DNA from: a virus
Taxonomy: Duplodnaviria > Heunggongvirae > Uroviricota > Caudoviricetes
DNA: 5,720 nt
Reading direction: 5' to 3' (one strand)
IMG/VR virus record: IMGVR_UViG_2703718860_000012
Coordinates: 1-5,720 of that record
Shown here: positions 1 to 5,313 of the stretch, one piece after another
Layout: each line of letters starts with the position of its first letter
How positions within the stretch are numbered: position 1 is the stretch's first letter
The notes under the pieces: generated by a model
Seen by the model: the letters and a program-made list of their open reading frames with translations, nothing else
Told to the model about the DNA's origin: nothing
Database searches by the model: none
Position numbers and translations under genes: made by a program

Positions 1-900
1 GGGCGTGTCCTGCTGGAGCCTGAGCCGGAACGTTATTCATCTTTTGCCAGTGGTGCCGTTCCGGCATCATCACAACCGCTGGCGGATGATCCTGCCGTTC
101 GGGCCGTGTTCCGCCATGAGGCGGTGATCCGTCGTGCTGGTGGCGTGGAATGCCTTGAGAGCTGGTTACTTCGTGAAAAGGGCTGTCAGTGGCCTCATTC
201 CGACTGGCACAGCGAGAACATGACCACAATGCGGCACGCGCCAGGCGCAATCCGTCTGTGCTGGCACTGTGACAATCTTCTCCGTGACCAGTTCACGGAA
301 CGGCTGGAAGCAATGGCAACGGATAACTGTGCCCGCTGGGTGTTGTCTGTTGTGCGCCGTGATCTTGGTTTTGATGACAGTCACGTTGTGACAATGCCGG
401 AACTGTGCTGGTGGCTGGTTCGTAATGACCTGGCGGATGCTTTACCGGAAAGTGCAGCCCGTAAGGCCCTGAGATTACCGAAGCCTGTTGTGCCGTCTGT
501 CACCCGGGAAAGTGACCTTGTGCCTTCGGTTCCTGCCACCAGCATCATCCAGGATAAGGCGAAAAAGGTGCTGGCGCTGAAAGTGGATCCGGAGTCGCCG
601 GAGTCTTTTATGTTACGCCCAAAACGTCGCCGCTGGGTTAATGAAAAGTACACGCGCTGGGTTAAGACACAGCCGTGTGCATGTTGTGGAAAGCCTGCTG
701 ATGATCCCCACCACCTGATAGGCCACGGTCAGGGTGGTATGGGGACAAAAGCGCATGACCTTTTTGTGTTGCCGTTGTGCAGAAAACACCATGACAAACT
801 GCATGCGGATACCGTGGCATTTGAAGAGAAGTATGGTTCCCAACTGGAGCTGATATTTCGTTTTATCGATCGCGCGCTGGCGATTGGTGTGCTGTCCTGA
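1..900 (+). CDS. DUF968-family lambdoid prophage protein, 5'-partial (reading frame open from base 1; listed GTG at 106 is probably internal)
   Basis: Frame 1 has no stop from 1 to 900. C-terminal motif C-A-C-C-G-K-P...D-P-H-H-L-I-G...G-T-K-A-H-D...[12 protein letters not shown] (codons from 676) is the HNH-like Cys/His pattern recalled for DUF968 (YdfU-like) proteins, which sit just upstream of Q in lambdoid prophages. A second CxxC lies near residue 52 of the listed ORF. G+C is high, like the esterase gene. Confidence 0.7.
136..143 (+). other. Chi octamer 5'-GCTGGTGG-3'
   Basis: Exact octamer read directly at 136..143. Confidence 0.9.
407..414 (+). other. Chi octamer 5'-GCTGGTGG-3'
   Basis: Exact octamer read directly at 407..414. 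Confidence 0.9.
536..543 (-). other. Chi octamer (CCACCAGC on + strand, so GCTGGTGG on - strand)
   Basis: Exact reverse-complement octamer read directly at 536..543. Confidence 0.9.
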
Positions 901-917
901 TTTTGTGGAGAAAGTTG

Positions 918-1310
918 ATGCGTGATATTCAGATGGTTCTCGAACGCTGGGGAGCATGGGCGGCAAATAATCATGAGAATGTTAGTTGGTCGCCAATTGC
1001 TGCGGGGTTTAAAGGCCTCATCCCCTCAAAAGTAAAATTTCGACCGCAATGTTGCGATGATGATGGTCTTATCATTAGTTCAGTTATGGCTGTTCTCAAG
1101 AAAAAGGAACCATATCAATACCAATTACTGGAAATGTATTATGTATATGGGATCACATTACGAGCGTTAGGGGCGAAAATGGGGATATCGCTTAATCAAG
1201 TTGTTATTAGATTGCAGAAAGCTGAAGGGTTTGTTGAAGGGTGTCTGGCAATGCTCGAGGTATCTTTAGAAATGGATTGCTATATGAATCACGAAAATGA
1301 TTCAAGATAA
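918..1310 (+). CDS. quuD: Late-gene antitermination protein Q, short QuuD/YbcQ-type (130 aa)
   Basis: N-terminus [20 protein letters not shown]...GFKGLI...RPQCCDDD...LQKAEG matches my recollection of the E. coli DLP12 QuuD (YbcQ, ~127 aa) family. ATG at 918 is preceded by GGAG (907..910) with a 7-nt spacer; the listed TTG at 903 is less likely. Position directly after a DUF968 gene is typical. G+C is clearly lower than in flanking genes. Confidence 0.85.
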
Positions 1311-1376
1311 ATGAACAGTTACTAGTTATATTTTACAGTAATCTCCTGATGATACACGTTCAGCAGGAGGTTATTT

Positions 1377-1994
1377 ATGAATGAAAATGTAAGACACATA
1401 TTGCTGGATGCAATTGAAAATAAGAAATCTTTAACGGTAATTTACTTAGGAGGTAGTCAGCCAGGAACATTGAGAGATATATCTCCGATAAGCATATCAG
1501 AAGATAAACTTAGGGCAAGATGCCATAGTACTGATGCTGTAAAGTTTTTTAATATTGGGAAAATACAACTACCTAGTGACTCGTCCATGATAACTGTGCC
1601 ATATGGAAGTTTAGAGCTTAAAGTTTATGAGACGATGCAGAGTGTGTATGAGGACTTTCATAGCCTGTATCCGGAAGGTCGATGGGGAGTTGAATTTAAT
1701 GATCATGAATTTGCTCTATTTGATTTTTTCAAAAATGGAAAAAGAAAAAAAACAGCATTTATGGCAATTCAGTTTATGGAAAGACATGAGGATGAAACAA
1801 GAACGGAGATAACAATTGATGTCAGTCTATCAGGTGTTGTGATTTCGGAGGGAGCCAGAACACCTAAAAGACGTCCGTGGGTTGTGACTGGTCCCGGGCG
1901 TGGAGAGCTAAGAACTTATTCAACGTTAGACAAAGCTGCTACAGAGTTTTTTAAGCGACTTTCATTGATGGTATCTATGGCGATTGAAACATAA
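1377..1994 (+). CDS. Hypothetical 205-aa protein, AT-rich cargo (moron) gene of unknown function; no signal peptide or TM segment evident
   Basis: Consensus SD AGGAGG (1365..1370) lies 6 nt before ATG 1377. The ORF is uninterrupted for 618 nt in a region of roughly 35-40% G+C (counted by hand on sample 60-mers) against roughly 55-60% in the esterase gene. Many AGA/AGG Arg and ATA Ile codons, rare in E. coli, indicate horizontal origin. A terminator follows at 2084..2105. I do not recognise the protein. Confidence 0.8.
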   Translation: MNENVRHILLDAIENKKSLTVIYLGGSQPGTLRDISPISISEDKLRARCHSTDAVKFFNIGKIQLPSDSSMITVPYGSLELKVYETMQSVYEDFHSLYPEGRWGVEFNDHEFALFDFFKNGKRKKTAFMAIQFMERHEDETRTEITIDVSLSGVVISEGARTPKRRPWVVTGPGRGELRTYSTLDKAATEFFKRLSLMVSMAIET

Positions 1995-2083
1995 GGGATA
2001 TAAAGATACCGAGGAAATGATTTGTGTTATAACAAAAACCATCTTAATCTGTTAAGAGTGGTCACTCCGTCATACAGCTTAAA

Positions 2084-2105
2084 CCTGCCGCCTGGCGGGT
2101 TTTTT
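2084..2105 (+). terminator. Rho-independent terminator after the 205-aa gene
   Basis: Stem CCTGCC (2084..2089) pairs with GGCGGG (2094..2099), including one G-U, around loop GCCT, followed by TTTTTT (2100..2105). Confidence 0.65.
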
Positions 2106-2136
2106 ATGCCCAAAATCGCGTCAGTACAGTAAACAC

Positions 2137-2144
2137 GCTGGTGG
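2137..2144 (+). other. Chi octamer 5'-GCTGGTGG-3'
   Basis: Exact octamer read directly at 2137..2144. Confidence 0.9.
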
Positions 2145-2227
2145 TTGCGAATACGGGTCTTTCAGCTTGCTGGCTTTTTCGACAAGAGTTATTGGTGTGT
2201 CACGTTAACCGGAAAAGGGAAAAAGAC

Positions 2228-2425
2228 ATGCTAAAACAGCAGGATATGACAGAAACCGCCAGAGTGGTGTTTAATGAATTAAGTGCCACCGAACCGGCGA
2301 CAGTCGGGGAGATTGCGCAGAATACTTACCTTTCACGCGAACGCTGCCAGTTAATACTGACCCAGCTGGTTATGGCGGGTCTGGCAGACTATCAGTTCGG
2401 TTGTTACAGACGCCTTCCGCAGTGA
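2228..2425 (+). CDS. Small hypothetical protein (65 aa), putative winged-helix/HTH DNA-binding protein
   Basis: ATG 2228 is preceded by the purine-rich stretch AAAAGGGA (2213..2220) with a 7-nt spacer; the listed 94-aa form starts at a GTG (2141) with no SD. The segment TVGEIAQNTYLSRERCQLILTQLVMAGL looks like a helix-turn-helix with recognition helix. Its own terminator overlaps the stop codon. Confidence 0.55.
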   Translation: MLKQQDMTETARVVFNELSATEPATVGEIAQNTYLSRERCQLILTQLVMAGLADYQFGCYRRLPQ

Positions 2426-2439
2426 AGGCTTTTTTATTT
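2412..2439 (+). terminator. Rho-independent terminator overlapping the stop of the small wHTH gene
   Basis: Stem GCCTTC (2412..2417) pairs with GAAGGC (2424..2429) around loop CGCAGT, followed by TTTTTTATTT (2430..2439). Confidence 0.7.
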
Positions 2440-2453
2440 GTGGTAAATGGGCG

Positions 2454-2461
2454 GCTGGTGG
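2454..2461 (+). other. Chi octamer 5'-GCTGGTGG-3' inside a GT-rich tract
   Basis: Exact octamer at 2454..2461, followed by Chi-like GTGTGGTGGTTGTTG. Confidence 0.9.
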
Positions 2462-2757
2462 GTGTGGTGGTTGTTGCTTTCCCGTTGCTGAAAAAGAAAG
2501 CATCAGGCGATTAGCAGGGTATCAGTTACCCGTTGAAATTTTTAAATACCTCACAATTCAGGCGGTTGACTGTTGTCTGGTTTGCGGGGAGTTTGTTAAA
2601 AGAAACTGGCATGGTGAATCCCCCTGTGCGGAGGGGCAATCAGCAACTGGTGTTTTGTCACCGACCCTTATCCTTTCTGTGCGGGTTCAGGTGCTGATAC
2701 TGAACTCACCGGGAGGCACCCGGCACCATGTGCATGATGATACAGATACGCGGCTTT

Positions 2758-2784
2758 AGCCCCTCTCCGGAGGGGCTTTCTTGT
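2758..2784 (+). terminator. Rho-independent terminator in the leader upstream of nanS-p
   Basis: Perfect 8-bp stem AGCCCCTC (2758..2765) with GAGGGGCT (2770..2777), loop TCCG, then TTCTTGT. Confidence 0.65.
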
Positions 2785-2812
2785 GGGCAAAAAAAAGCCT
2801 GAGTGGGTTCGG

Positions 2813-2842
2813 GCAACAGCATGAGATATACATTTTTATAAT
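2813..2842 (+). promoter_or_regulatory. Candidate sigma70 promoter: perfect -10 TATAAT (2837..2842) with a weak -35 (GCAACA, 2813..2818, 18-bp spacer)
   Basis: Perfect TATAAT hexamer read directly; the -35 match is only 3/6. Sits ~155 bp upstream of nanS-p ATG. Could be a late (Q-responsive) promoter. Confidence 0.3.
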
Positions 2843-2869
2843 CGAATGGATTTTAACCAGAATTCATAA

Positions 2870-2894
2870 GGCTGCGCAACTGCGTGGCCTTTTT
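2870..2894 (+). terminator. Hairpin plus U5 (attenuator or early terminator) about 25-50 nt downstream of the candidate -10
   Basis: Stem GGCTGCGC (2870..2877) pairs with GCGTGGCC (2882..2889), with two G-U pairs, around loop AACT, followed by TTTTT (2890..2894). Confidence 0.45.
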
Positions 2895-2996
2895 CGTATT
2901 GCGGGCTGTAGTTTTCCTTCTGCCATTGTCCTGTAACTTCCGGACTTCAGCCCGCCCCTCATCTGACTCACAACATTATCCCGACCGGGAGGATTC

Positions 2997-4979
2997 ATGA
3001 CATTTAAACACTACGATGTGGTCAGGGCGGCGTCGCCGTCAGACCTTGCGGAGCGACTGACACAAAAACTGAAGGAGGGGTGGCAGCCATTTGGCAGCCC
3101 TGTCGCCATCACGCCTTATACCCTGATGCAGGCCATTGCGGCGGAAGGTGATGTCACCACACCTGTGGTGGTGAAGCCGTCGGATGGAGAAGGCACAGTT
3201 ATCAGCACCACCAGCGAACCGGAGTATTACTTTGTTGTTGTTCTGGCGGGGCAGTCAAACTCAATGTCTTTTGGTGAAGGGCTGCCGCTGCCGGAGACAT
3301 ATGACCGTCCGGACCCGCGTATTAAACAGCTGGCGCGTCGCAGTACGGTGACGCCGGGTGGTGCCGCCTGTAAATATAACGACATCATTCCGGCAGACCA
3401 TTGTCTGCATGATGTGCAGGACGTGAGTAATCTGAATCACCCGAAAGCAGACCTCAATAAAGGGCAGTATGGCTGTGTGGGGCATGCCCTGCATGTGGCC
3501 AAAAAACTGCTGCCGTTTATGCCTGCCCGTGCGGGGATCCTTCTTGTCCCGTGTGGACGTGGCGATTCGGGATTTACTGCGGGAGCAGAGGGCGCGTTTA
3601 ATGAGGCGTCGGGTGCGACAGCGGGCTCTTCCCTGTGGGGGGTGGATAAACCGTTGTATCGTGACCTGGTCAGCAGAACGCGTGCAGCCCTGAAGAAAAA
3701 TCCGAAAAACGTGCTGTTGTCGGTGATCTGGATGCAGGGGGAAAAAGATGTCAGTTCGGGGAGACATGCAGAGCACAATGCACTTTTTCTTGCCATGGTA
3801 AATAAATACCGTGCAGACCTGGCAGATATTGCAGACCAGTGTACTGGCGGGACAACGTCCGGCGTCCCGTGGATTTGCGGTGACACCACGTACGACTGGA
3901 AGGCGAAGTATGCAGTGCAGTATGAGGCGGTTTACGGAGGCTATAAAGGCAAGGCGGCGCAGAATATTCACTTTGTGCCGTTGATGACGGATGAGCATGG
4001 TGCGAATGTGCCGACAAACGAGCCGTCAGAAGATCCGGACATTATCACGGCGGGATACTATGGTGCCGCGTCACGCAGTAATGGTAACTGGACGACAGCC
4101 GATCGTAAAACGCACTTCAGCTCCTGGGCGCGAAGAGGCATTGTTTCAGATCGGCTGGCAGGAGAGATACTGGTGCGAGCCGGGCGTTTGCTGCCGTTCC
4201 TGAGCGGGCAGTCTGCACCGCTGGCGACCACGCCAGCCTCCACGGGGGATGCACAGTCTGGCTCTGCGGGTCAGACGCAACAGCAGGGTGCAGGTACTTC
4301 TGCAGGCGGTCATACTGAAGCCGTAACAAGAATGGTGGCCGGATATGATGCGAACAGTGGCAGTGGTGTATGGACAGAGCAGCAGTGGAATGCGTCCGGT
4401 GGTAAAGGCACTGTGACGGATGACAGTGGCAGGAAGGCGCTGCGACTGGAAAAACAGCCGGGTAAACTGACCTCCTGGAAGATGTTCCGTACTGTTGCGG
4501 TGGAGGAGGCAAAAAATCTTCTCAGTAAGGGAGGTGAAATTGCCGTGCGGTTTAAGATCCCGGAGGGTGTCGAACTGGTTAACGGTCAGTTTGTCTTTGG
4601 TCTGTACTGGCCGGTGTCGCAGTGGGCGTCAGGCGCGACAGCAAACAGCATGCTGGCGTCCTTCTTCCTTCAGACGGATGCATCAAATCTGAATCTGATG
4701 TACCACAAGGGGGAGTCGAATGCGCAACTGGGCACATTTGGGGCATTTGACCATAACTGGCATACAGTTGTTTTCCGCTTTGCGGGAAATAACAGCGAAA
4801 AAGTGGTGCCGGTGATTGATGATGCAGAGCAGTCTGCGTTTGACCTGGTGATGTGGACAAATGATGGCTTTACAGCAGATACGCTGACGCTGACAGATAT
4901 CACGGGGGCAAAAGCGACGTATCCGGTACTGCTTGATACGGTCACAGTCAAAGTTAACGAAAGCCGGGCATCATCATAA
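2997..4979 (+). CDS. nanS: Prophage-encoded sialate (9-O-acetyl-Neu5Ac) O-acetylesterase, NanS-p/YjhS-like, 660 aa
   Basis: SD GGGAGG (2987..2992) precedes ATG 2997. The SGNH/SASA esterase block VVVLAGQSNSM, with catalytic-type Ser in G-Q-S-N at 3249..3260, lies ~85 residues into the protein, consistent with the N-terminal extension I recall as DUF1737 in nanS-p. Size of ~650 aa, a Gly/Ser/Gln-rich linker and a C-terminal domain match prophage nanS-p genes, which lie between the stx slot and the lysis genes in EHEC phages. High G+C. Confidence 0.88.
   Translation: MTFKHYDVVRAASPSDLAERLTQKLKEGWQPFGSPVAITPYTLMQAIAAEGDVTTPVVVKPSDGEGTVISTTSEPEYYFVVVLAGQSNSMSFGEGLPLPETYDRPDPRIKQLARRSTVTPGGAACKYNDIIPADHCLHDVQDVSNLNHPKADLNKGQYGCVGHALHVAKKLLPFMPARAGILLVPCGRGDSGFTAGAEGAFNEASGATAGSSLWGVDKPLYRDLVSRTRAALKKNPKNVLLSVIWMQGEKDVSSGRHAEHNALFLAMVNKYRADLADIADQCTGGTTSGVPWICGDTTYDWKAKYAVQYEAVYGGYKGKAAQNIHFVPLMTDEHGANVPTNEPSEDPDIITAGYYGAASRSNGNWTTADRKTHFSSWARRGIVSDRLAGEILVRAGRLLPFLSGQSAPLATTPASTGDAQSGSAGQTQQQGAGTSAGGHTEAVTRMVAGYDANSGSGVWTEQQWNASGGKGTVTDDSGRKALRLEKQPGKLTSWKMFRTVAVEEAKNLLSKGGEIAVRFKIPEGVELVNGQFVFGLYWPVSQWASGATANSMLASFFLQTDASNLNLMYHKGESNAQLGTFGAFDHNWHTVVFRFAGNNSEKVVPVIDDAEQSAFDLVMWTNDGFTADTLTLTDITGAKATYPVLLDTVTVKVNESRASS
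3208..3215 (-). other. Chi octamer (CCACCAGC on + strand)
   Basis: Exact reverse-complement octamer read directly at 3208..3215. Confidence 0.9.
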
Positions 4980-4984
4980 CCGGC

Positions 4985-5021
4985 AAAAAAAACCGCCAGC
5001 GGCAGGAACGGAAGCTGGCGG
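4985..5021. repeat. Perfect 8-bp inverted repeat (stem-loop) with an A8 tract on its left side, 14 nt after the nanS-p stop
   Basis: CCGCCAGC (4993..5000) and GCTGGCGG (5014..5021) are exact reverse complements around a 13-nt loop, with AAAAAAAA at 4985..4992. This geometry would terminate leftward (- strand) transcripts; for + strand transcripts there is no U-tract. Confidence 0.5.
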
Positions 5022-5118
5022 AGGTAATCCCAATGGAGAATGTAAAGAAAAGATGCTTTCGTATATCGGTTTTTTAAATGAAAACAGTTCTCATTGTCAA
5101 CCATAACGGTAAGAAACT

Positions 5119-5313
5119 ATGACATTTGTTCATCAGGTGATGCTGTACTTCTGTACGGCTGTCTGTGTGCTGTATCTTCTTTCGGGTGGGTACAGGGCAG
5201 TGCGCGATTTCTGGCGCAGGCAGATTGATAAAAGGGCCGCAGAGAAAATCAGCGCCAGTCAGTCAGCCGGAGCAAAAACAGAAGCCCCACTCATTCCGGA
5301 ACAACCTTCTTAA
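5119..5313 (+). CDS. Small hypothetical single-TM membrane peptide (64 aa)
   Basis: ORF with a hydrophobic N-terminal segment (VMLYFCTAVCVLYLLSGGY) followed by a basic then polar tail; weak SD (AAGAAA). It does not overlap the next gene if that gene starts at 5339. Coding status uncertain. Confidence 0.4.
   Translation: MTFVHQVMLYFCTAVCVLYLLSGGYRAVRDFWRRQIDKRAAEKISASQSAGAKTEAPLIPEQPS

Follow-up and report, generated by a model that had tools for sequence, protein, structure and literature searches.

A convergent pair of small RNA genes and a gene-island deletion scar upstream of nanS-p in a lambdoid prophage sequence

Positions 2426 to 2996 of the window, i.e., the whole stretch of 5,720 nucleotides analyzed here, hold the end of an intrinsic terminator, the 3' remnant of a DUF3927 gene, a small RNA (sRNA) gene of the STnc100 family on the plus strand, an anti-sRNA gene of the AsxR/AgvB/EcOnc03 family on the minus strand, a terminator-like hairpin, and the 5' untranslated region of nanS-p. 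In this analysis, which provides the family identities, the conserved structures, the gene order, and the conservation, the region is very probably a composite intergenic module typical of lambdoid prophages, rather than a single leader RNA, and it is found at the downstream border of the “moron” insertion site, with Q/pR' before it and nanS-p and the lysis genes after it.

An earlier note on this DNA described the region as G+C-rich, devoid of credible ORFs, and folded into five stem-loops. The longest reading frames indeed have only 54 (TTG start) and 51 codons, and the five stem-loops all exist within a few bases of the reported places, fold as reported, and are kept in homologous prophages, but the G+C content is 49.4%, against 50.2% in the whole window, with 55.5% in the STnc100 part alone. 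Thermodynamic stability was discarded as uninformative evidence, given that the folding energy, relative to shuffled sequences, has a z of -1.7 for the whole 571 nt and -0.8 for the STnc100 segment. The terminator scan found 12 terminator-like sites in the whole window, versus 5.2 +/- 2.5 in the shuffles, and ranked those at 2868, 2758, and 2412 as hits 2 to 4, while a search for cis-regulatory RNA families in Rfam returned matches at chance level only (e.g., a Leu leader with 20.9 bits, E = 0.74). The motifs GAGGGGC and GCCCCTC do recur, at 2631 and 2770 and at 2759 and 2954, respectively, which are not exactly the positions first given, and the repeat CTGTGCGG (2624 and 2677) has its second copy in the variable segment of the STnc100 RNA, being double in only 3 of 21 homologues.

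At the upstream edge, a plus-strand intrinsic terminator (2412..2435; stem 2412..2429 and a U-run, -8.7 kcal/mol) closes a 65-aa ORF (2228..2425), and the two are conserved together in other prophages (L005, 569..834). This is followed, on the same strand, by the last ~19 codons and the stop codon of a DUF3927 gene (2448..2514; Pfam DUF3927 profile positions 32-50 of 53), a remnant overlooked previously; at the equivalent place, RefSeq annotates a fragment of 24 aa in EC931 and, in ABU 83972, the intact gene, of 54 aa. In the blastn mapping against L005, window 2200..2465 corresponds to 569..834 and window 2448..2600 to 2993..3145, with a junction of 18 nt of microhomology (2448..2465), and the remnant marks a 2.2-kb deletion in which a methylase, three tRNAs, and TerB were lost.

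This scar bears directly on the proposal that the region is a decayed tRNA island similar to the ileZ-argN-argO cluster of the Stx phages, given that related prophages do carry tRNA Ile-Arg-Arg genes shortly upstream of the STnc100 unit, and that the scar lies exactly where such an island would sit. However, ARAGORN found 0 tRNA genes and Rfam, at E values up to 10, gave no tRNA match anywhere in the window, while the clean deletion alignment to L005 implies that nothing derived from a tRNA remains. The island was cleanly deleted rather than left to decay, so that this proposal is extremely improbable.

The principal feature of the plus strand is an STnc100-family sRNA gene of the EcOnc27/sRNA103 type (2580..2788). 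The Rfam scan suggested by the earlier note gave a full-length match to RF02076, with 134.7 bits against a gathering score of 47 (E = 1.7e-30, model positions 1-206 of 206), which accounts for three of the hairpins described, including an intrinsic terminator. The family takes in EcOnc27/sRNA103 of the Stx2 phages and, more distantly, PasD, and it was present in 17 of the 17 related loci that were scanned, at 104.7-207.7 bits.

The architecture of this RNA is that of a conserved multi-helix core around one variable segment, followed by a variable linker and then a strong intrinsic terminator. A closing helix (2609..2616/2724..2731) surrounds hairpin 1 (2621..2625/2632..2636; 2621..2636 folds at -8.1 kcal/mol), the variable segment (2637..2682), and two further hairpins, at 2683..2690/2700..2707 and at 2709..2713/2719..2723 (2709..2723 folds at -7.7 kcal/mol), after which come the linker with the candidate seed (2732..2757) and the terminator (stem 2758..2777, U-run to 2783; -16.8 kcal/mol), which has an 8-bp G+C-rich stem and a U-rich tail at the 3' end, as in the rho-independent type. 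In the pair counts from 21 homologues, the closing helix was 99.4% paired, the hairpin at 2683..2707 was 95.8% paired, with three pairs changed on both sides, and the terminator helix was 91.3% paired, with two such pairs, while two of the hairpins were essentially invariant. None of 500 shuffles reached the observed covariation score in these homologues, and the paired fraction was 83%, in comparison with 40-52% in the slid controls. Of the nine helices in the Rfam consensus, five were supported by the homologues in the covariation analysis, and the other four, which are peripheral, were unsupported (24-64% paired in the 21 homologues).

An RNA of this type probably pairs with mRNAs through the variable linker or the variable segment. 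A small protein encoded in the conserved core (ATG 2611, MVNPPVRRG...) was also considered and rejected, as the homologous frames vary from 10 to 44 aa and have no Shine-Dalgarno sequence, and the change of ATG to ATA in two homologues also counts against it.

We infer the promoters of the STnc100 gene, like the targets and the insulator role discussed here, from the sequence. The conserved sRNA module begins on the plus strand at 2537..2561, with the motif AAnT(G/T)TTAAAT-N4-CACAATTCAG, which was found in 53 of 56 distinct upstream sequences, while everything further upstream is unrelated. The first candidate promoter, P1 (plus strand; -10 TAAATA at 2543..2548, without the TG present in most homologues), would start near 2555 and yield an RNA of ~228 nt, close to the 235/247-nt Northern bands of EcOnc27. 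The second candidate, P2 (plus strand; -35 TTGTCT at 2573..2578, extended -10 TG at 2594..2595, -10 TAAAAG at 2597..2602, putative +1 at G2609), does not have the usual T at -7 in the window, but its elements show position-specific conservation in the 56 distinct sequences, and the RIL-seq fragments of the relative PasD2 start at the equivalent G of GCATGG, matching this +1. Two tandem promoter candidates may explain the differing RNA sizes reported for EcOnc27 and PasD, which makes them a mildly useful lead. Two other possibilities were rejected, i.e., TTGACT (2566..2571) as a -35 element, which has no -10 at a workable spacing, and a sigma-54 promoter in GTTGACnGTTGCC, where neither the spacing nor the GG/GC dinucleotides agree with such a promoter.

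On the minus strand, the 56-nt anti-sRNA gene (2844..2789), which the earlier note did not record, nor its terminator (2797..2814), was recognized through Rfam, published sequences, and 19 distinct copies in related loci. Its promoter has the -35 TTGCGC (2879..2874), an 18-nt spacer, and the -10 TAAAAT (2855..2850), and its +1, C2844, corresponds to the published 5' RLM-RACE ends of AsxR and AgvB (PMC4104026); the arrangement TTGCGC-N18-TAAAAT-N5-C, with identical hexamers in the same register, lies upstream of all four anti-sRNA classes. Downstream of the +1 are a 16-nt 5' variable region, CGAUUAUAAAAAUGUA (2844..2829), a terminator stem with one C.A mismatch (2814..2797), and a U8 tract (2796..2789), all on the minus strand. 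The end of the gene is 3 nt away from the STnc100 match, and the two genes converge, with their terminators back to back.

The copy in the window falls below the family cut-offs, with 56.5 bits on the AsxR model (gathering score 63, E = 3.4e-7) and 37.0 bits on the AgvB model (gathering score 56), while same-class copies without the stem mutation (L011 and L021) score exactly 63.0 bits on AsxR, which is the cut-off itself. The mutation is a G-to-A change that creates the C.A mismatch in the 6-bp terminator stem and leaves the U8 tail intact, so that this stem A is the sole difference from EcOnc03 in the core, UAUCUCAUGCUGUUGCCCGAACCCACUC(A)GGC-U8; the allele is also found in L003 and L029. The fold of the whole RNA has -5.3 kcal/mol, versus -11.7 for AsxR, and, given the weakened stem and the score below the cut-off, the anti-sRNA of the window may be weakly terminated or unstable.

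In functional terms, the 16-nt 5' variable region probably lets the anti-sRNA act as a sponge for a host sRNA. For the variant found in the window, no clear site emerged from a duplex prediction with FnrS. The CGAUUAUAAAAAUGUA class occurs at an identity of at least 95% in ~183 of 5426 complete E. coli genomes, such as those of ABU 83972 and of O16:H6 and O25:H4 isolates, and in this sample it belongs to extraintestinal and commensal-type E. coli rather than to Stx phages. The minus-strand unit that follows nanS-p was also compared with PasA, and this homology was rejected for want of a convincing alignment.

Between the two sRNA genes and nanS-p, a conserved 10-bp plus-strand hairpin followed by U5 (2868..2896; stem 2868..2891, -13.9 kcal/mol) overlaps the -35 element of the anti-sRNA promoter. 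It is 90-100% conserved in related loci, including those that have a different minus-strand cassette, and would function in the manner of a terminator. The 5' untranslated region of nanS-p then extends over 2897..2996 on the plus strand (Shine-Dalgarno GGGAGG at 2987..2992, ATG at 2997), where the identity across loci is 81-99%, against only 57-98% for the esterases that they encode.

The location of the late promoter bears on another interpretation, in which the region is the late-operon leader proper, carrying pR' and tR' together with the Q-utilisation site, and the STnc100 RNA corresponds to the lambda 6S RNA (pR' to tR'). The region does lie between Q and the lysis genes, and it contains a promoter-like TAAAT with a -10-like CACAAT 4 nt downstream, an arrangement reminiscent of the sigma-dependent pause element in lambda pR'; a strong terminator stands at the end, and the size is near that of 6S RNA. 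However, transcription from the Sp5 pR' begins 22 nt past the stop codon of Q (PMC7547250), at a point that maps to position 2953 of Stx2 phage I (L001), and the alignment of the post-Q region of this phage and of four E. coli prophages placed the homologue on the plus strand of the window at 2022..2057 (-35 TTGTGT at 2022..2027, -10 TAATCT at 2045..2050, start near 2057), i.e., at least 370 bp upstream of 2426..2996, with a first plus-strand terminator after it, at 2084..2106.

Other loci point in the same direction. In the Stx phages, the STnc100 unit comes after stx2B or stx1B, and the Stx2-phage homologue of the region, being downstream of stx2B, is far from pR'/tR'. The unit is found with at least three different Q families and forms tandem arrays of 2 to 4 copies in related loci, while the genes directly upstream of it are highly diverse, including TerB, a methylase with tRNAs, StxB, and lipoproteins, and, in the loci with Q as the nearest gene upstream, at least 194 nt separate the two, leaving room for a canonical pR'-tR'. 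These diverse neighbors and this gap also led to the rejection of the idea that STnc100 serves some other Q family as its pR' leader. There is a likeness to the lambda pR'-qut-tR' unit (6S RNA) and to StxS, which also binds Hfq in the Stx phages (PMC7547250), in that both produce a short terminated late-operon transcript that is read through by Q-modified polymerase, but the StxS/pR' homologue of the window lies at another locus, 2022..2106, and the STnc100 unit has promoter-like elements of its own and is far from Q in many phages. The late-operon leader put forward by the earlier note is therefore very unlikely, although the region itself still belongs to the late transcription unit that Q antiterminates. 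Of the three readings offered there, it is the source of a small RNA that held, with two sRNA genes, one on each strand.

The region upstream of nanS-p is thus an ordinary copy of a prophage module that has already been described, consisting of a convergent sRNA gene pair and the scar of a gene-island deletion. Tree et al. (2014) reported exactly such an arrangement, as “convergent sRNA pairs 3' of PR' in the moron insertion site” (PMC4104026), and the literature on the homologues, from which expression, Hfq dependence, and anti-sRNA activity are taken, presents them as Hfq-bound RNAs in Northern blots, CRAC, and RIL-seq (PMC4104026, PMC8550237). For example, EcOnc27 gave an Hfq CRAC peak and, with a probe whose sequence can pair with the STnc100 linker, Hfq-dependent Northern bands of 235/247 nt, and AsxR gave a 54-nt band (Tree et al. 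2014), while PasD1/D2 were detected by Northern blot and RIL-seq. In Stx2 phage I, STnc100 was placed at L001 5030..5235 and AsxR at 5237..5289 on the minus strand, which are 75 and 282 nt after stx2B, respectively, in agreement with the publications (PMC12370729, PMC4104026).

The likenesses to these systems are close in both genes. EcOnc27 (Sp5, E. coli O157:H7 Sakai) and sRNA103 (EDL933) have the same core helices and terminator type as the window, and occupy the same slot after the moron site, ~390 nt before nanS-p and convergent with an anti-sRNA gene, but the variable segment (2637..2682) and the linker (2732..2757) of the Sp5 copy differ, the overall identity is ~71-77%, and the window, unlike Sp5, has no stx genes upstream; its STnc100 allele is 100% identical to the copy of E. 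coli EC931. PasD1/PasD2 (EPEC E2348/69; Pearl Mizrahi et al. 2021; Zhu, Shabalina and Storz 2026 preprint) also lie after a DUF3927 gene and before a sialate esterase gene, and share the start of the closing helix (GCAUGGUGAAUCC...), the order of the hairpins, and a P2-like promoter, although PasD2 is a shortened and divergent relative (41.4 bits on the STnc100 model, versus 134.7 for the window), and the published PasD seed, UGUGAG, is absent from the linker of the window. The anti-sRNA, in turn, follows the family layout of a highly conserved ~42-nt 3' region and a variable 14-18-nt 5' region (Tree et al. 2014), with a distinct 5' region of 16 nt. It shares with AsxR, AgvB, and EcOnc03 (RF02703, RF02702) the promoter hexamers, register, +1, convergent position, and ~40-nt conserved 3' core with terminator and U-run, at 56 nt versus 51-60 nt, while CGAUUAUAAAAAUGUA, in which 4 of 16 positions are not those of AsxR and which does not resemble AgvB or EcOnc03, makes up a fourth class.

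In a lysogen, each sRNA would have a sigma-70 promoter and a terminator to itself, and both RNAs would bind Hfq and act in trans. During lytic growth, RNA polymerase modified by Q would set out from ~2057 and read through the four plus-strand terminators identified by the terminator scan (2084..2106, 2412..2435, 2758..2783, and 2868..2896) into nanS-p and the lysis genes, which, without Q, the stacked terminators may insulate from the upstream moron promoters.

These four terminators between pR' and nanS-p also favor the view that the conserved structure acts mainly in cis, as a terminator stack and possibly a conformational switch that sets Q-independent transcription into nanS-p and the lysis genes, with the sRNAs as secondary products. 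The STnc100 unit always borders the lysis cassette on its 5' side, with nanS-p or a holin following, and the distance from its last copy to the ATG of the esterase (nanS-p) is constant, at 373-408 nt in the survey of 55 viral loci. The pairing proposed for the switch would join the 3' arm of hairpin 1 (2631..2637) to the terminator's 5' arm (2759..2765); it can form in 98.6% of cells in the 21 homologues, and the constrained alternative fold is only 2.3 kcal/mol above that of minimum free energy. However, this helix has no changes on both sides and is kept up solely by G.U pairing to a G-rich arm that does not vary, with shuffles that equal the observed value, and the homologues accumulate as discrete Hfq-bound RNAs with many partners in trans (PMC4104026, PMC8550237).

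A tie between STnc100 and the function of nanS-p was likewise rejected. The complementarity of GAAUCCCCCU to the ribosome-binding site of nanS-p (10 nt, -15.2 kcal/mol) was equaled overall by 73 of 500 shuffles, which also weighs against action in cis, and the pairing is lost where the ribosome-binding site differs, while the STnc100 unit also stands before holins and other genes. A mainly cis-acting role is therefore unlikely, though compatible with the preferred explanation, i.e., two trans-acting sRNA genes in a composite module.

In biological terms, there is nothing new in kind, the region being a further copy of the convergent pair of Tree et al. (2014), here in a non-Stx prophage, and the value for annotation is modest, in that recognizing the module averts two errors, the late-promoter leader and the degenerate tRNA cluster. 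Mildly useful leads are the unnamed fourth anti-sRNA class and the view of STnc100 as a fixed scaffold with exchangeable variable cassettes. It is doubtful, though conceivable, that the CGAUUAUAAAAAUGUA RNA is also functionally distinct from the other anti-sRNA classes, perhaps sponging a host sRNA other than FnrS or GcvB, and/or that the G-rich arm of STnc100 hairpin 1 competes with the terminator, which would turn the unit into a conformational switch adjusting the level of Q-independent read-through into the lysis genes and nanS-p.

Finally, the module is widespread. The STnc100 core lies at most 1.3 kb upstream of an esterase gene in 52 of 55 viral loci, the scan of genome contigs with the esterase as query gave two loci only, and the RefSeq records of E. 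coli that were examined leave the module bare, except for the DUF3927 fragment and occasional hypothetical or pseudogene calls. Parts of the region were found in 2732 of 5426 complete E. coli genomes, i.e., in about half of them, often in several copies.

The region at 2426-2996, a 571-bp gap ahead of nanS-p, is an ordinary copy of a prophage sRNA locus already described (Tree et al. 2014; Pearl Mizrahi et al. 2021; Zhu, Shabalina and Storz 2026 preprint; Rfam RF02076, RF02703 and RF02702). The window itself covers the beginning of the late region of an E. coli lambdoid prophage, in which Pfam identified a DUF968/NinG-like gene (106..900), the antiterminator Q, of family PF06530 (918..1310), the sialate O-acetylesterase gene nanS-p (2997..4979; DUF1737, SASA and DUF6645), and DUF1378 and DUF826 genes, together with a 205-aa ORF of low G+C (1377..1994) and a 65-aa ORF (2228..2425).

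The earlier note's claim that no credible ORF spans the gap holds, the longest there being 54 aa. The five hairpins are all present and fold as described, and three of them rank in the top four of the terminator-like sites that the terminator scan found in the window, 12 in all where shuffles gave 5.2 +/- 2.5. The supposed G+C richness was not borne out (49.4% versus 50.2% for the window), the folding energy is unexceptional (z = -1.7 overall, -0.8 for the core), and the recurring motifs exist, with some coordinates swapped or off by one, while the repeat of CTGTGCGG is not a family feature. Two elements, a minus-strand gene and a protein-gene remnant, had been overlooked.

The Rfam covariance scan that the note proposed gave, over all families, a sole match above its curated threshold, namely STnc100 (RF02076) at 2580..2788 on the plus strand, with 134.7 bits against 47 and the whole model covered. 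Of 5426 complete E. coli genomes, 2732 carry the region, at a median of two places in each, and it was also found in 356 phage records, most of them from Stx-converting phages. The homologous stretch of Stx2 phage I lies between stx2B and the nanS-p homologue, and carries in Rfam STnc100 (207.7 bits, 75 nt past stx2B) and, on the opposite strand, AsxR (88.1 bits, 282 nt past stx2B), at positions identical to those published (PMC12370729 and PMC4104026, respectively). The plus-strand RNA is the EcOnc27 of Tree et al., who reported for it Northern bands of about 235 and 247 nt and an Hfq cross-linking peak across the final 80 nt (PMC4104026). The STnc100 linker is the complement of their Northern probe, and STnc100, EcOnc27 and sRNA103 are treated as the same RNA in a 2025 paper (PMC12711010).

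Among 80 viral contigs collected via the esterase protein alone, independently of the RNA, at least one STnc100 core was present in 52 of the 55 loci with enough upstream sequence, the last copy always being 373-408 nt from the esterase ATG. Given that units are also found before holins and after many different genes, STnc100 is a self-contained module at the 5' border of the lysis cassette rather than a leader specific to nanS-p. Units can stand in tandem, two to four together, as in the head-to-tail arrays of the related loci L071 (four copies, 1091..3772) and L003 (two, 4155..4847). Every unit there comes with a promoter-like block and a terminator of its own, the variable segments and linkers differ, and this arrangement suggests cassette shuffling on a fixed scaffold.

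Stem-loop conservation, whose absence in homologous prophages the note had counted among the refuting results, was found when 21 units were aligned and their pairs counted against the Rfam consensus. The long-range closing helix (2609..2616 with 2724..2731), the hairpin 2683..2690/2700..2707 and the terminator are well supported, each with two-sided changes at some pairs, the hairpins at 2621..2636 and 2709..2723 vary never or hardly, and four peripheral Rfam helices are without support in these units. A cis-acting switch, in which the 3' arm of hairpin 1 pairs with the 5' arm of the terminator, is improbable: the pairing is possible in 98.6% of cells, at a cost of no more than 2.3 kcal/mol for the alternative fold, but it lacks compensatory support. 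STnc100 is a fixed scaffold with one internal variable segment (2637..2682), separated from the terminator by a variable linker (2732..2757), and the seed of its relative PasD, as published, sits in the equivalent linker.

Directly adjoining STnc100 on the minus strand, at 2844..2792, Rfam gives a sub-threshold match to AsxR (56.5 bits versus 63, E = 3.4e-7) and, at the same site, one to AgvB (37 bits, also sub-threshold). The predicted RNA, 2844 to 2789, reads CGAUUAUAAAAAUGUA-UAUCUCAUGCUGUUGCCCGAACCCACUCAGGC-U8, and its promoter, TTGCGC-N18-TAAAAT-N5-C, has hexamers and register that are constant in all collected copies. The final 40 nt correspond to the core shared by AsxR, AgvB and EcOnc03 (compared with the sequences in the PMC4104026 supplement), and the first 16 nt, judged by sequence, make up a fourth class, distinct from the three published. 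Thirteen of the loci examined carry this class, as do about 183 complete E. coli genomes (at least 95% identity over the 112-nt module), the module being unannotated in the 12 matches listed. The low score of the window copy is due to a G-to-A change, also seen in NCTC9112 and the related locus L029, which produces a C.A mismatch in the terminator stem, the unmutated allele scoring exactly 63.0. In many relatives, including L002 (4361..4470, minus strand), L066 and L009, a different minus-strand cassette, ...ACGUUUUGUUGUUUAUUCCUUGCCGCCCGCGUCUCCCAGCGCGGGC-U7, occupies the slot, which thus accepts alternative convergent sRNA genes; E2348C_1409.E2348C_1408.IGR, an sRNA candidate from RIL-seq in EPEC, is a close match to this cassette.

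The 56 distinct upstream sequences compared have nothing in common beyond about 72 nt before the STnc100 core, and two promoter-like arrangements from there on. The candidate P1, T(G/T)TTAAAT followed 4 nt later by CACAATTCAG, occurs in 53 of the 56, with its -10 at 2543..2548 in the window, and would start near 2555 to give an RNA of about 228 nt, close to the EcOnc27 bands. The candidate P2, TTG(C/T)CT, 18 nt that include an extended -10 TG, TAAAA(A/G) and a G six nt on, would have its +1 at G2609 and yield about 175 nt; the EPEC relative PasD2 has P2 only, and its RIL-seq fragments start at the G equivalent to G2609. In Salmonella LT2, ChIP-exo reported RpoD at STnc100 promoters (PMC10794520). 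The conserved block ahead of the core also contains CUCACA (2550..2555), a motif enriched among the RIL-seq targets of the related sRNA PasD (seed UGUGAG), and the long P1 transcript could in principle pair with PasD-type RNAs, over a match of only 6-7 nt.

Further downstream, the hairpin at 2868..2896 overlaps the -35 of the anti-sRNA promoter, is conserved even in loci with the other minus-strand cassette and, read on the plus strand, resembles one more terminator. The conserved nanS-p 5' UTR, with GGGAGG at 2987..2992, makes up the final 100 nt of the gap. The 9-mer ACCGGGAGG occurs twice, in STnc100 hairpin 3 (2707..2715) and at the nanS-p Shine-Dalgarno (2982..2990), and the invariant GAAUCCCCCU (2616..2625) matches, at all positions but one, the complement of GGGAGGAUUC in the ribosome-binding site (2987..2996; -15.2 kcal/mol). 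Pairing of STnc100 with this site was rejected, being no better than chance against shuffles, and the complementarity is lost where the ribosome-binding site differs.

The note had also offered the late-operon leader as a possible reading of the gap. In Sp5, pR' starts at Sakai 1,266,203 and tR' is at 1,266,460 (Sy et al., PMC7547250). With the annotated genes for Q and stx2B as a check on the coordinates, this start lies 22 nt past the Q stop codon, at position 2953 of the Stx2 phage I locus (L001), inside AAGAGTGG. In related E. coli prophages the pR' block comes directly after Q; its counterpart in the window, at 2016..2110, is set apart from Q by the 205-aa ORF, which is inserted between the Q 3' end and the promoter. 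Homology to Sp5 pR' gives a -35 TTGTGT at 2022..2027, a -10 TAATCT at 2045..2050 and a start near 2057, with a putative first terminator at 2084..2106, so that the gap is within the late transcription unit, pR', qut and tR' all being outside it; the reading as a pR'/6S-like leader fails, given the pR' homologue upstream, at 2022..2057. The pR' transcript has a hairpin and U-run only about 25-50 nt past the start (window 2084..2106; L001 2976..3000), unlike the Sp5 tR' published at +258 (PMC7547250). The stem of this early hairpin is stronger in the window, with 6 bp and one G.U.

In lambdoid phages, Q-modified polymerase passes through intrinsic terminators. In the lysogen, both sRNA genes would be transcribed from promoters of their own and end at terminators placed back to back, whereas on induction polymerase from about 2057 would cross four terminators to nanS-p; without Q, the terminator stack may shield nanS-p and the lysis genes from moron promoters. 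Both RNAs of the homologues accumulate in lysogens and are Hfq-dependent, AsxR and AgvB antagonising the host sRNAs FnrS and GcvB (PMC4104026), and PasD has many RIL-seq partners (PMC8550237).

The first 90 bp of the gap are explained through comparison with annotated genomes. RefSeq has a 24-aa 'DUF3927 family protein' fragment in EC931, where the window has 2440..2514, and in ABU 83972 a complete DUF3927 gene of 54 aa, and the window reading frame matches the C-terminal third of DUF3927 (Pfam). After the 65-aa ORF, ABU 83972 carries, in order, a DNA methylase, tRNA Ile-Arg-Arg, TerB and DUF3927; window 2200..2465 aligns to the stretch ending just past the 65-aa ORF and 2448..2600 to the end of DUF3927, with an overlap of 18 nt of microhomology (2448..2465, GCTGGTGG..GGTGTGGTGG). 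The two alignments imply a deletion of about 2.16 kb (835..2992 of the ABU 83972 locus, L005), by which the methylase, the tRNAs, TerB and most of DUF3927 were lost relative to that prophage, and the junction looks like a recombination scar. The decayed tRNA island envisaged by the note fails likewise, since the Rfam and tRNA-gene scans of the window found no tRNA and the island is deleted.

The inserted 205-aa ORF (interval 1295..2022) has a G+C of 37.7%. In relatives, Q is directly adjoined by the block beginning AATGATT (window 2016), and the octamer AAATGATT is present at both 1295 and 2015, which indicates that the Q C-terminus was replaced in the window. The ORF has weak WYL-domain similarity only (Pfam E = 0.0087; PADLOC WYL E = 1.5e-4) and could be a moron or defence-type cargo gene.

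Finally, a terminator-ended sRNA-like unit lies on the minus strand at 4985..5059, directly after nanS-p and convergent with it. It gave no alignment with PasA, from the equivalent slot in E2348/69, and Rfam matches it only weakly to Esr41 (23 bits, gathering 102, E = 0.47), but it clearly resembles the 3' two-thirds of Esr41: ACAUU..CUCCAU.GGG.AUU.CCUCCGCC.GC, then a stem and U8.
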